A model generated the notes under the pieces. The model did no database searches, was not told the DNA's origin, and saw nothing but the letters and a program-made list of their open reading frames with translations. The position numbers and the translations under genes were made by a program. Positions 1 through 8,466 of a stretch of 64,000 nt of DNA are shown piece after piece (position 1 is the stretch's first letter; each line of letters opens with the position of its first letter). Source of the stretch: Eledone cirrhosa (taxonomy: Eukaryota); NCBI GenBank assembly GCA_964016885.1, contig OZ024766.1, positions 62,001 to 126,000 of the forward strand, given 5' to 3'.

Positions 1-31
1 TCGGTGCCACTAAAGAAAGGACACAAACTTG
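1..31 (+). CDS. 3' end of an upstream FU exon of the hemocyanin-like gene (window starts inside it)
   Basis: Reads SVPLKKGHKL-G|gtaagt, a phase-1 donor at 32. Near-identical to 811-841, which ends a hemocyanin beta-domain sequence. The phase matches the acceptor before 2422. Confidence 0.7.
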
Positions 32-549: not shown

Positions 550-841
550 GTGAAATGGGTGGTGGTTGAAATTCAGATGTGCACGGCTAAATGGTAGTAC
601 AAAGCGGGCAAGTTTTTCGTCATGGGAGGGTTAGAAAGCAGTTGGGATTTCAGCTACCCTTATCTCTTCGAAATCCCAAACGCGTTTAAAAACCTTGATA
701 TCCATTATCTCCATGATCCCTACTACGTCTATGCAGATTTACACCACTTAAGAGGTCATCACTTACTCAATGACACCATACCAGGGTCCACCGTCTCGTA
801 CATCGCTGCGCCGGTGCCACAAAAGAAAGGACACAAAGTTG
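550..841 (+). pseudogene. Duplicated partial hemocyanin-like FU exon (beta-domain C-terminus) with in-frame stop
   Basis: Reads VKWVVVEIQMCTAKW*YKAGKFFVMGGLESSWDFSYPYLFEI...VSYIAAPVPQKKGHKV-G|gtaagt, resembling the AGxFFVLGGxxEMPWxFDRxYxYDI motif. TAG at 595-597. Part of an 810-bp-offset tandem duplication. Confidence 0.6.
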
Positions 842-2421: not shown

Positions 2422-2878
2422 TAGAGAAAAAGGTCAAAACGGAGCCTGTTGTGGTGCGGAAGAATATTAAAAGTCTCAGCAAAAATGAAGAATTAGAGCT
2501 AAGACTAGCAATGCAGTGTTTCTTTGACGACAAATCCATCACCGGGTATCAGAAGTTAGCAGAATATGGCGGACTACTTCGGAGATGTCCGAAGCTGGAA
2601 TCCAATGTTCAGACGGTGTGTAGCGTCCACGGGGGACCCACTTTTCTACATTGGAACCGTTTGGCTTTGAAACAGCTGGAGAGTTCCCTGCGTTTGTGTG
2701 GAACGACTGTTGGCGTTCCCTATTGGGACTGGACAGATCCGGAAGATTCTCTGCCCCGGTTTGTAACTCTACAAGGATATATTGAACCGAAAAGTAATTT
2801 GCACAGATATAATCCCTTCTCTCGTCTCACTATCGATTTTCTGTCCTACACTAAAACAGCTAATAGGAACAATGAATG
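2422..2878 (+). CDS. Hemocyanin-like gene, penultimate FU exon 1 (CuA region degenerate)
   Basis: ttacag acceptor, phase 1. Reads VVRKNIKSLS..YQKLAEYGG..CP..CSVHGGPTFLHWNRL..GVPYWDWT..LP..NPF. Donor TG|gtgagt, phase 2. Confidence 0.92.
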
Positions 2879-2907
2879 GTGAGTGTTATTTAAATTTTTT
2901 CTTATCT

Positions 2908-2948
<41 letters not shown>

Positions 2949-3117
2949 AATCATTCAACGTCCATTTTCCATCCTGGAATGGGTTAGACGTGTTATCTTG
3001 TCAGCAATGCCAAGTCAGGTGAACGTGTCTTGCTCATACAGAACCAATTTTGGCTTGGTTTCTTCAGCGAAATGCCCTTCCTAGCGCACTGGGTGCTTTT
3101 TGTCGTGACACCTACAT

Positions 3118-3743
3118 GGGCGGTGGATTGGCAGTATCGGTAGAGGGTCGGACGCCATGGTAGGGTGGTGGATTGGCAGTATCGGTAGAGGGTCGGACGC
3201 CATGGTAGGGTGGTGGATTGGCAGTATCGGTAGAGGGTCGGACGCCATGGTAGGGCGGTGGATTGGCAGTATCGGTAGAGGGTCGGACGCCATGGTAGGG
3301 TGGTGGATTGGCAGTATCGGTAGAGGGTCGGACGCCATGGTAGGGTGGTGGATTGGCAGTATCGGTAGAGGGTCGGACGCCATGGTAGGGCGGTGGATTG
3401 GCAGTATCGGTAGAGGGTCGGACGCCATGCTAGGGTGGTGGATTGGCAGTATCGGTAGAGGGTCGGACGCCATGGTAGGGCGGTGGATTTGCAGTATCGG
3501 TAGAGGGTCGGACGCCATGGTAGAGTGGTAGATTGGCAGTATCGGTAGAGGGTCGGACGCCATGCTAGGGTGGTGGATTGGCAGTATCGGTAGAGGGTCG
3601 GACGCCATGGTAGGGTGGTGGAGTGGCAGTATCGGTAGAGGGTCGGACGCCATGGTAGGGTGGTGGAGTGGCAGTATCGGTAGAGGGTTGGACGCCATGC
3701 TAGGGTGGTGGATTGGCAGTATCGGTAGAGGGTCGGACGCCAT
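3118..3743 (+). repeat. 45-bp minisatellite (about 14 copies) made from the SINE family A head
   Basis: Unit GGGTGGTGGATTGGCAGTATCGGTAGAGGGTCGGACGCCATGGTA. The last unit runs into the SINE body. Confidence 0.9.
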
Positions 3744-3888
3744 GCTTTCCAGTATAGTTACGTCCCTTTACGATCTGAGTTCAAATCCCGCCGAGGTTGA
3801 CTTTGCCTTTCATCCTTACGGGGTCGATAAAATAAAGTACCAGTAATGCACTGGGGTAATTGCTGGCCTTGTGCCTAAAGTAGAAACA
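3700..3888 (+). mobile_element. tRNA-derived SINE (family A, octopus-type)
   Basis: A-box-like TGGCAGTATCGG, B-box GAGTTCAAATCC, then GACTTTGCCTTTCATCCTTACGGGGTCGATAAAATAAAGTACCAGT. More than 10 copies in the window. Confidence 0.85.
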
Positions 3889-3959
3889 ATTATATATTTT
3901 ATATATATTATATATAATGTGATATATATATAAATAATATCGAAATCTCATAGATTCGA

Positions 3960-4392
3960 TATTATGTGAGATATTATGTGAGGTAAAGCCTTTACCATGA
4001 AAATACAATAGTATATATAGAGTAATGTAAATGTTATGTGAGATATTATGTGAGGTAAAGCCTTTACTGTGAAAATACAATAGTAGATATAGAGTAATGT
4101 AAATGTTATGTGAGATATTATGTGAGGTAAAGCCTTTACTGTGAAAATACAATAGTAGATATAGAGTAATGTAAATGTTATGTGAGATATTATGTGAGGT
4201 AAAGCCTTTACTGTGAAAATACAATAGTATATATAGAGTAATGTAAATGTTTGTGAGGTATTATGTGAGGTAAAGCCTTTACTGTGAAAATACAATAGTA
4301 TATATAGAGTAATGTAAATGTTATGTGAGGTATTATGTGAGGTAAAGCCTGTACTGTGAAAATACAATAGTATATATAGAGTAATGTAAATG
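3960..4392. repeat. 72-bp minisatellite (about 6 copies)
   Basis: Unit TTATGTGAGATATTATGTGAGGTAAAGCCTTTACTGTGAAAATACAATAG... The ORF track shows 24-aa periodicity. Confidence 0.9.
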
Positions 4393-4650
4393 CTAAATGG
4401 TTAAAACCTTACTGTGAATTTAGAAGTGGTACCTTTCAACCCTGACTTTTAGCAATCAAGGAAGATCACTCAAATGGTTTCTGTTTCATTAACCATAATC
4501 AGAGTAGCTAACTCCGTTTGGATTCGAAGACGAACATATGTTAAAAGTTTACATTTTTTATGCTTATGAAAGTCTACCGAGGAATTTAATTTATTGACAG
4601 AACAAAAACTGGTAATCTGATCCCACCTTTTACATGTTCCCCTGTTTCAG

Positions 4651-5465
4651 GATTGCCGAAAACCTTGATGGAGAGAAACATTTGGTCCTCTTTACACAGC
4701 TCTTGTTTGCTTTGGAACAGGAGGACTTCTGCGATTTTACAATACAACTAGAGGTTCTTCAAAATAGTCTTTATAATATTTTCTTGGAGCCAGAATTTGA
4801 AACGCTGCACCACATGACCTTCGATCCTCTTTACTGGTTGCATTGCAATCAGGTAGATCGTTTGTGGGCCACATGGCAAGCCCTGCAACAATATCGAGGT
4901 CTGTCTTCCAAAGATTACTGTGTTCAGTCTGAACGCCATCGCCCTTTAAAGCCCTTCTCTGCTGGCCCTCCCATCAATACCAATACGATCACATATGACT
5001 ATTCAACGCCCGCCAAAGTACACGACTACCGCGAGAATCTAGAATACGAGTTCAATTCCCTGAAATTAGGAGCTTATATGTCACTCAGCCTCCCCGACCT
5101 TCAGAACCGCATTGATCACCAGAAATCTCTAGACCGTGTCTTCATCGGTTTCCAGCTACATGGCATCAAGACATCTGCGAAGGTATGGGTGACAATAGAA
5201 TCTGGCAGTAGGGTGTGGAAGGGTGAGGACAGTAGTGCTATTACGAATTTAGTCTCCATTTTGATCTATGGAAGCCACGAGGAGGACGACTGGTCATACA
5301 GTCGCTACTACAAGTATGATATATCCCAAGAGCTGCTACAATTGGGATTTAACCACGATGAGATGGACATGATACGTTTACATGTTAACATGGAGGACAT
5401 CAATGGTACAGCCCTTCCGGTCCACACTCTACCGAAACCTGTTATTATATACATACCCAACAAAC
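4651..5465 (+). CDS. Hemocyanin-like gene, penultimate FU exon 2 (degenerate CuB plus beta-domain)
   Basis: tttcag acceptor, phase 2 (TG+G = Trp). Reads ALEQEDFCDFTIQLEVLQNSLY..FDPLYWLHCNQVDRLWATWQALQQYRG..LKPF..DRVFIGFQLHGIKTSA..YKYDIS. Donor AAA C|gtaagt, phase 1. Confidence 0.93.
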
Positions 5466-6159: not shown

Positions 6160-7072
6160 CGTGGATTGGCAGTATCGGTAGAGGGTCGGACGCCATGCTT
6201 TCCAGCATAGTTACGTCCCTTTACGATCTGAGTTCAAATCCCGCCGAGGTTGACTTTGCCTTTCATCCTTACGGGGTCGATAAAATAAAGTACCAGTAAT
6301 GAACTGGGTAATTGCTGGCCTTGTGCCTAAAGTAGAAACAATTATTTCAAAGATCCTTCGGAGGATCTCTATTTTGGCTGATTGTATTCTAACCACAACC
6401 ACATACCTGTAGTAACAAAGTTATGATCTCTCAATTTGGAGAGGTAGCAGTTCTACCTGGGCTGACTCTCTAATCTAACATTATTTCAAAGATCCTTATT
6501 TTAAAGGGCGGTAGATTGGCAGTATCAGTAGAGGGTCGGACCCCATGCTTTGCAGCGAAGAGTTACGAATATATATATTCGAAGTTTGAAAGGTACAATG
6601 TCTGTTTGGATGGATAATAATTAATTTATTCACATGTCCTGTACTGATATTTGGAGGTTAATATATATATATATATTAAGGGCGGTGGCTTGGCAGTATC
6701 AGTAGAGGGTCGGACGCCATGCTTTCCAGCATAGAGTTACGTCCCTTTACGATCTGAGTTCAAATCCCGCCGAGGTTGACTTTGCCTTTCATCCTTACGG
6801 GGTCGATAAAATAAAGTACCAGTAATGTACTGGGTTATTGCTGGCCTTGTGCCTAAAGTAGAAACAAATATATATATATATATTAAGGGCGGTGGCTTGG
6901 CAGTATCAGTAGAGGGTCGGACGCCATGCTTTCCAGCATATAGTTACGTCCCTTTACGATCTGAGTTCAAATCCCGCCGAGGTTGACTTTGCCTTTCATC
7001 CTTACGGGGTCGATAAAATAAAGTACCAGTAATGAACTGGGTAATTGCTGGCCTTGTGCCTAAAGTAGAAAC
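6160..7072 (+). mobile_element. Cluster of SINE family A copies (6160-6341, partial 6506-6567, 6679-6867, 6887-7072)
   Basis: Near-identical to 3700-3888. Confidence 0.85.
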
Positions 7073-7186
7073 AATTATTTCAAAGATCCTTCGGGGGATC
7101 TTTATTTCGGCTGCTTCTATTCTAACCACATGCTTGTATTCCGTCGTATCGGAACTGTGATCTTTCAAATTTGTTTTCTTTGGCAG

Positions 7187-8466
7187 TGAATTCTAAATGG
7201 TTAAAATACGACAGGAGACTTGTGGATACGCTCACACCAATGGAGGAGCTTGAGCTCCGTGAAGCACTGCGTAAATACAAAGCCGATAAAACAGCAGCTG
7301 GATTCGATAGACTAGCAAAGATGCATGGTTCACATCAATGGTGCCCGTATTTATCAGCTCCCGTCAAAAAACTTTGTTGTCACCACATGAGCAAAACATT
7401 TCTACCTTGGCATAGATTGCTGATAAAAAACTTCGAAGATGGCATGAGGCGGAGTGGCAACAGAATCGGAATTCCCTATTGGGATTGGACAAGTAAGATG
7501 AAAGCATTACCTAAGCTTGTTACCGACAAGGAGTATAGCGATTTAAGTGGTAAAATTCGAGTGAACCCATTCCTTGGAGCCTATGTAGATTTTTTGAATG
7601 AAAACACGACTAGAGATGTGCAAAAGAATCTGTTTTCAAGGCAAACATTAATAGATACAACCAGTCGTATTTCAAACGCTCTTGACCAACACAATTTTAT
7701 AATTTTCTCGCAAGGATTGGAGAGTATTCACAACGAAATCCATAATTTGGTTGGTGGGGATGCAGATTGTTCGATGTCCCGCCTAGAGTGTGCCGCTTAC
7801 GATCCAGTTTTTTACCTGCATCACAGCATGGTGGACCGTGTGTGGGCCGCGTGGCAACGGAAATACGATTGGCATAACACAGTGTCTCAAAACATAGAAT
7901 TTAATCAAACAATGAGTCCATTTAATATCAGTTCTATCAATGTTTATAAAATTACAAGCAGATATACTATACCCTGGATGACGTTTGATTATAAAAAGAA
8001 TTTCCACTATCATTACGACAATTTAGATATCATTAAATATCGAACGATGTTGAGTTGCATGAAAGATCGTCAACAAGTGGTTCGAACGTTTGTACAGATT
8101 TACGACTTGATAAACATCAGAGAACCATATATAGTGGCGTTCTACATAAGCCCAAAGGGAGATGTGGACGTGGCGAAGACGACGACAAGTGAGGTGCACA
8201 CAACCGCCAACGGCACCTCCTCAAACGTGGACACACTCATCAGCAGGTTAAAGAAGCAGAGAAGATTTGTGGAGGATGTACATATGATGGGCAGCAAATG
8301 GGAGTTGGCGGGTCGCACAAACGTAACCAACAGTGTGGAGGTCCACTCCATGATTGGATGGAACAAAACAGAGTTTGATCTGCACTACGTCGTCTTTGAC
8401 CTCCACGGTAAACTAATACACAGGGTGGCCCCGAGGGTGGAGGTCGTGAGTAAAACATACAGGTAA
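7187..8466 (+). CDS. Hemocyanin-like gene, last visible FU with an intact type-3 dicopper site
   Basis: tggcag acceptor, phase 1. KMHG..WCP, CCHH, FLPWHR, IPYWDWT, ESIHNEIH and DPVFYLHHSMVDRVWAAWQ give all six His. Ends at TAA 8464-8466 or splices at AG|gtaact (8462), so the 3' end is uncertain. Confidence 0.92.

Follow-up and report, generated by a model that had tools for sequence, protein, structure and literature searches.

A three-unit octopod hemocyanin paralog whose middle unit has lost five of six copper-ligand histidines

The window analysed here, 64,000 nucleotides of Eledone cirrhosa contig OZ024766.1 (positions 62,001 to 126,000 of the forward strand, counted from 1 below), carries the exons of a hemocyanin-like gene (Table 1). 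Two exons encode a unit (FU) of type b and give, when spliced, 423 codons with no stop, close to the roughly 420 open codons of the original prediction. Pieces resembling FU-a lie upstream and an exon for FU-c lies downstream, and the linker introns between a and b and between b and c are both phase 1. The FU-c exon ends either with a TAA at 8464–8466 or with a GT donor after 8462. A short terminal exon matching the tail of the Octopus protein was not found in the window, and no further FU was matched downstream between 8600 and 64000. The original prediction had missed this context, i.e., that the unit is the middle one of a three-unit gene with a six-His FU-c.

Table 1. Features of the hemocyanin-like gene (window coordinates)
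Feature	Position	Strand	Remarks
End of second, upstream FU-a exon copy	1–31	+	same donor as the 605–841 piece
FU-a-like exon, 3′ part	605–841	+	phase-1 linker donor; in-frame TAG upstream (595–597); weak acceptors only
FU-b exon 1	2422–2878	+	CuA half; AG acceptor, phase 1; GT donor splits a Trp codon TG/G
HA2 His	2628–2630	+	sole surviving copper-ligand His of FU-b; also His in 3/3 named Octopus orthologs
FU-b internal intron	2879–4650	+	1,772 bp, phase 2, GT..AG ends
FU-b exon 2	4651–5465	+	CuB half and beta-sandwich lid; phase-1 GT donor
FU-c exon	7187–8466	+	six His and thioether Cys all present

Around the FU-a exon the window contains a tandem duplication (2–547 versus 812–1417, 91–94% identical) which takes in the exon's 3′ end together with the donor and adjoining intron sequence. 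The larger FU-a-like piece is possibly a dead duplicate, and the duplicated stretch represents either a dead partial exon copy or an assembly artefact; the copy of the gene in the window could be damaged. Because of the TAG and the duplication, FU-a is described here from Octopus (P0003, P0007 and P0008), where it keeps HA1 and HA2 and has Asn at HA3, as does FU-b. About 40 of its residues are deleted, its CuB region is remodelled and unalignable, and the linker between a and b is unusually basic and rich in Lys, Arg and His.

For the copper site we use the labels HA1 to HB3 and thioether, which follow the hemocyanin and tyrosinase motifs. In the FU-b of the window one of the six copper-ligand His is kept. 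All motif changes of the original prediction were found again at the codon level: FHG to YGG (HA1 to Gly, codon 2568), CCxH to CSVH (thioether Cys to Ser, codon 2622, with HA2 retained at 2628), WHR to WNR (HA3 to Asn, codon 2655), ExxHNxxH to EVLQNSLY (HB1 to Gln, codon 4760, and HB2 to Tyr, codon 4772) and LHHS to LHCN (HB3 to Cys, codon 4844), the His left in LHCN being a non-ligand residue one position ahead of HB3. The suspected shortening of the loop between the CuB helices corresponds in an alignment of 50 units to a 3-residue deletion after HB2 that includes the GG. The Leu forming the "plug" of the lid is replaced by Tyr (codon 5267). By alignment no substitute His was seen near the ligand columns, and among the seven His columns common to the FU-b of the window, O. 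vulgaris and O. bimaculoides, HA2 is the sole ligand column.

The structural motifs reported as retained (RKNI, PYWDWT, NPF, ALEQEDFCDF, DRLWAxWQ, LKPF and DRVF) are all in the sequence, the four Cys of the core disulfide pairs are present, and FU-b, which matches the Pfam families PF00264 and PF14830, has a tyrosinase-type core plus a beta-sandwich. The best solved match of both exons is the squid hemocyanin FU-b (E ~1e-33 and ~1e-55). FU-g, the reference type of the original prediction, was rejected, since both the structure matches and the tree assign the unit to the FU-b type.

An earlier fold of FU-a and FU-b together, computed from 10 sequences, reached a pLDDT of only 61.6, with hemocyanins still the top Foldseek matches, and was replaced by a fold of FU-b only. 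The new model, which is that of the O. bimaculoides ortholog and not of the window protein and was built from a 47-row alignment of mostly canonical FUs, has a pLDDT of 90.2 and a pTM of 0.92 and matches 1JS8 with Z 49.7 and an rmsd of 2.0 Å over 376 residues. This is the normal FU fold, and FU-b is predicted to keep it.

The asserted concentration of the losses on the ligands was quantified with near-invariant columns set by 33 of the 34 non-paralog FUs, namely those with all six His; the 34th, FU-f of Argonauta, was dropped as itself degenerate. With columns of ≥95% conservation, the window FU-b has lost 5/6 ligands versus 7/46 of the remaining columns (p = 0.0016 by Fisher's test); the figures are 5/6 versus 5/35 (p = 0.0018) at 100% and 5/6 versus 13/65 (p = 0.0033) at 90%, so that the concentration is borne out, albeit by a post hoc test on a site that was picked for exactly such a pattern. 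Five of the seven non-ligand losses in the 95% columns also adjoin the copper site.

Full-length orthologs of the gene are found in O. vulgaris (CAI9743244, 1271 aa) and O. bimaculoides (XP_052833582, 1272 aa), both with three units in the order a-b-c, and O. sinensis has a partial one (XP_036354573, 802 aa). Two exon-sized pieces (P0158 and P0170) are further orthologs, and an Argonauta hians fragment of an FU-b lid (GAB1607074) is counted with them. All three named Octopus FU-b have lost the same five ligands. HA1 is Ser, the thioether position Arg and HB3 Ser in Octopus versus Gly, Ser and Cys in the window; the window and all three Octopus units agree in the HA2 His, the Asn, the Gln, the Tyr and the plug Tyr. 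Between window and Octopus FU-b is 62% and FU-c 49–51% identical.

These data bear on one alternative, a decaying pseudogene. The in-frame TAG and the tandem duplication at the FU-a exon would fit decay, as would the long branches described below, but FU-b and FU-c are open and have canonical splice sites, and two full-length orthologs are annotated. Moreover, when neutral evolution was simulated 5,000 times with substitutions only, the open frame survived once at 38% divergence and 33 times at 20%. We therefore regard a pseudogene as very improbable.

The original prediction had spoken of a targeted loss. The part of this claim that the fold is kept and O2 binding lost holds, whereas positive selection is unnecessary: new residues are shared with Octopus at 4/7 pocket positions and at 65/113 other changed positions (p = 1). 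As the pocket residues are no more conserved than the background, relaxed copper binding together with selection for the fold is enough to account for the pattern. The same comparison weighs against a new ligand pocket in FU-b, in which the HA2 His, the Asn, Gln and Tyr and the lid Tyr would bind a single metal or a small molecule. Such a pocket would explain why these very residues are identical in the window and the three Octopus proteins and why the dead FU-b is better conserved than the live FU-c; the degree of sharing, however, equals the background, and with HB3 being Cys here and Ser in Octopus the two do not share a His/Cys metal site. A new pocket is thus improbable.

A quick tree took in 42 of the 50 units, with 8 rows left out. 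The paralog a, b and c units join the a, b and c units of squid and Argonauta with SH-aLRT supports of 99, 95 and 92, on long stems (1.3–1.4); in this tree each unit is shown to descend from the matching cephalopod hemocyanin unit. In a second quick tree the Argonauta fragment falls into the paralog clade with a support of 99, with only 17% of the columns filled. For the order of the duplication relative to the split of squids and octopuses the relevant supports are 86–91 (b) and 80 (c). Among the named protein-search matches there was no decapodiform ortholog, a search of limited sensitivity that does not prove absence. The units of BgHcl-1, a hemocyanin-like protein of the snail Biomphalaria glabrata, group with gastropod units and away from the paralog.

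With the respiratory FU-b of Todarodes pacificus (4YD9/6R83) and Argonauta hians (GAB1607025) the unit shares 40–42% identity, the fold, the disulfide Cys, the phase-1 linkers and the a-b-c order. In contrast to them it lacks five of the six His as well as the thioether Cys, carries the 3-residue loop deletion and has the plug Leu changed to Tyr. The orthologs consist of three units in 1271–1272 aa, the respiratory hemocyanins of 7–8 units.

Cryptocyanins, like hexamerins, are hemocyanin descendants that have lost copper ligands, and offer a functional analogy only. Loss of copper ligands in arthropod hexamerins, also a mere functional analogy as these belong to another hemocyanin family, is described in the sections of PMC5201427 used here. 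The closer comparison is with Hcl-1 and Hcl-2 of Biomphalaria glabrata, which according to the same sections are likewise truncated hemocyanin derivatives that have lost canonical His, Hcl-1 also having three units and an N-terminal leader (PMC5201427). BgHcl-1, however, is composed of a-b-h and has lost one His per unit in a snail that uses hemoglobin (PMC5201427, same sections), whereas the octopod gene has lost five in b and at least two to three, plus deletions, in a, with c complete; its bearers also retain a respiratory hemocyanin. The two are of separate origin, and their FU-b are 30% identical. Judged by sequence, FU-b does not belong with the O2-binding FUs, nor can the gene be classed as a respiratory hemocyanin or an Hcl-1 ortholog.

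How such a gene could have arisen may be envisaged as follows. The 5′ part of a cephalopod hemocyanin gene encoding a-b-c would have been duplicated. The decamer and cooperative O2 transport need units d–g, and without these a normal decamer and cooperative transport would have been impossible. With no decamer, copper binding in a and b would have decayed, while folding and the packing of a on b would have stayed under purifying selection. The buried ligand positions would then have been refilled mostly by polar one-step derivatives of His (Asn, Gln, Tyr), with the plug becoming Tyr, and FU-c would have kept its copper as its lid diverged. FU-b is very probably a copper-free scaffold.

The six His are intact in 4/4 FU-c, i.e., in the window, in the two named orthologs and in a piece of the P series. 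Both Cys of the second disulfide of FU-c are gone in the window and in Octopus, the loop that connects the CuB helices carries new Cys, and the plug Leu is Met or Phe. The lid, which in this species has a 22-residue insertion, is 13–22% identical to that of squid FU-c, compared with 63% for the respiratory FU-c of Argonauta and 37–42% for the lid of FU-b. Between orthologs the identity of the FU-c lid is just 32%, so that relaxed constraint would explain the divergence no less well than an opening of the lid. The predicted pI of the window FU-c is 9.2; FU-a and FU-c are at about 9, FU-b at 5.5–5.8 and six respiratory units at 5.6–5.9. A Glu/Asn pair adjoins CuB in FU-c and also in all respiratory FUs, and is therefore not diagnostic of an oxidase.

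Hemocyanins probably descend from tyrosinase-like enzymes and have latent phenoloxidase activity. The lid of respiratory hemocyanin blocks phenolic substrates, and its displacement releases this latent activity. Given this role of the lid, its divergence and the changed plug would favour a secreted oxidase. The descent and the latent activity are also treated in the consulted part of PMC5201427. The N-terminus is hydrophobic in both full-length orthologs, neither of which has a strong membrane segment further on, N-glycosylation sequons are numerous, and the protein is likely secreted. An oxidase that binds to an acidic matrix or surface would be in keeping with the basic FU-a and FU-c. Tentatively, and at somewhat less than an even chance, we assign FU-c the function of a phenoloxidase-type catalyst. 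A conserved octopod a-b-c paralog with a copper-free scaffold in FU-b, making a secreted non-respiratory protein with an oxidase in FU-c, is the reading of the whole gene that we put just short of an even chance. Its most specific form is possible but rather doubtful: here a-b-c would be a dedicated enzyme in which two copper-dead units anchor or regulate a single unlidded, cationic FU-c phenoloxidase that tans or defends some secreted matrix, for example the egg capsule, cement or mucus.

A protein for storage or for provisioning eggs, comparable to arthropod hexamerins and proposed as the role of BgHcl-1, would need less from FU-c. Units a and b would then be copper-free bulk, and FU-c would bind O2 or copper and catalyse nothing. 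The likely secretion and the many sequons suit such a role, and so does the precedent of BgHcl-1, a three-unit and His-deficient protein which, in the text of PMC5201427 available to us, comes from the albumen gland and occurs in the fluid of the egg mass. The octopod gene is, however, of separate origin, and storage has no need for a full copper site with its thioether Cys, which are nevertheless kept in all four FU-c. We consider storage unlikely. Alternatively FU-c, which has the full set of dicopper ligands and the thioether Cys, could bind O2 reversibly in an accessory or low-affinity O2 protein, with a and b docking it on hemocyanin or tissue. One site per ~145 kDa makes a poor carrier, though, and the reversed charge and diverged lid speak against normal wall contacts, which leaves this role, like the new pocket, with a low probability.

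Whatever FU-c does, a gene with two dead sites and one kept, in animals that breathe with hemocyanin, is a natural test of the features that set O2 carriage apart from catalysis, and FU-b would be a natural metal-free type-3 scaffold. The surprise is limited by the loss of His already known from truncated hemocyanin-like proteins of planorbid snails. The Octopus database entries have been named automatically as ordinary hemocyanin, and proteome or transcriptome matches to the gene would accordingly be misread.

Literature searches that took in accession numbers but not subscription papers or preprint supplements turned up no account of the gene. Type-A and Type-R are the only Octopus genes named in the part of PMC7931591 consulted. 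As far as the text of PMC3945787 at hand goes, embryonic cuttlefish hemocyanin has six His in every unit, and the Biomphalaria form is the only one cited as truncated. The gene thus apparently represents an undescribed octopod mini-hemocyanin that evolved independently and is degenerate in two units and intact in the third. In the portion of the O. vulgaris ink proteome supplement that we searched (PMC10142993) none of three paralog motifs occurred, which does not prove absence from ink.

Some minor observations concern other proteins and the introns. Argonauta hians GAB1607025 (P0010), an otherwise canonical hemocyanin, contains at residues ~1808–2231 an FU-f-like unit on a long branch which lacks HA2, HB2, HB3 and the thioether Cys; it is either a second copper-dead octopod case or a gene-model artefact. 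A 2,923-aa hemocyanin-like protein of O. vulgaris (A0A7E6FRZ6, LOC115225590), weakly detected in ink according to the same portion of PMC10142993, resembles the P0010 type by eye. The FU-b intron harbors two tandem arrays, with periods of 45 bp (3118–3744) and 72 bp (3962–4392), and a third intronic array of period 207 bp is located at 6660–7078. The units of the 45-bp and the 207-bp arrays have a segment in common, and the 207-bp unit contains what is presumably a SINE-like element.
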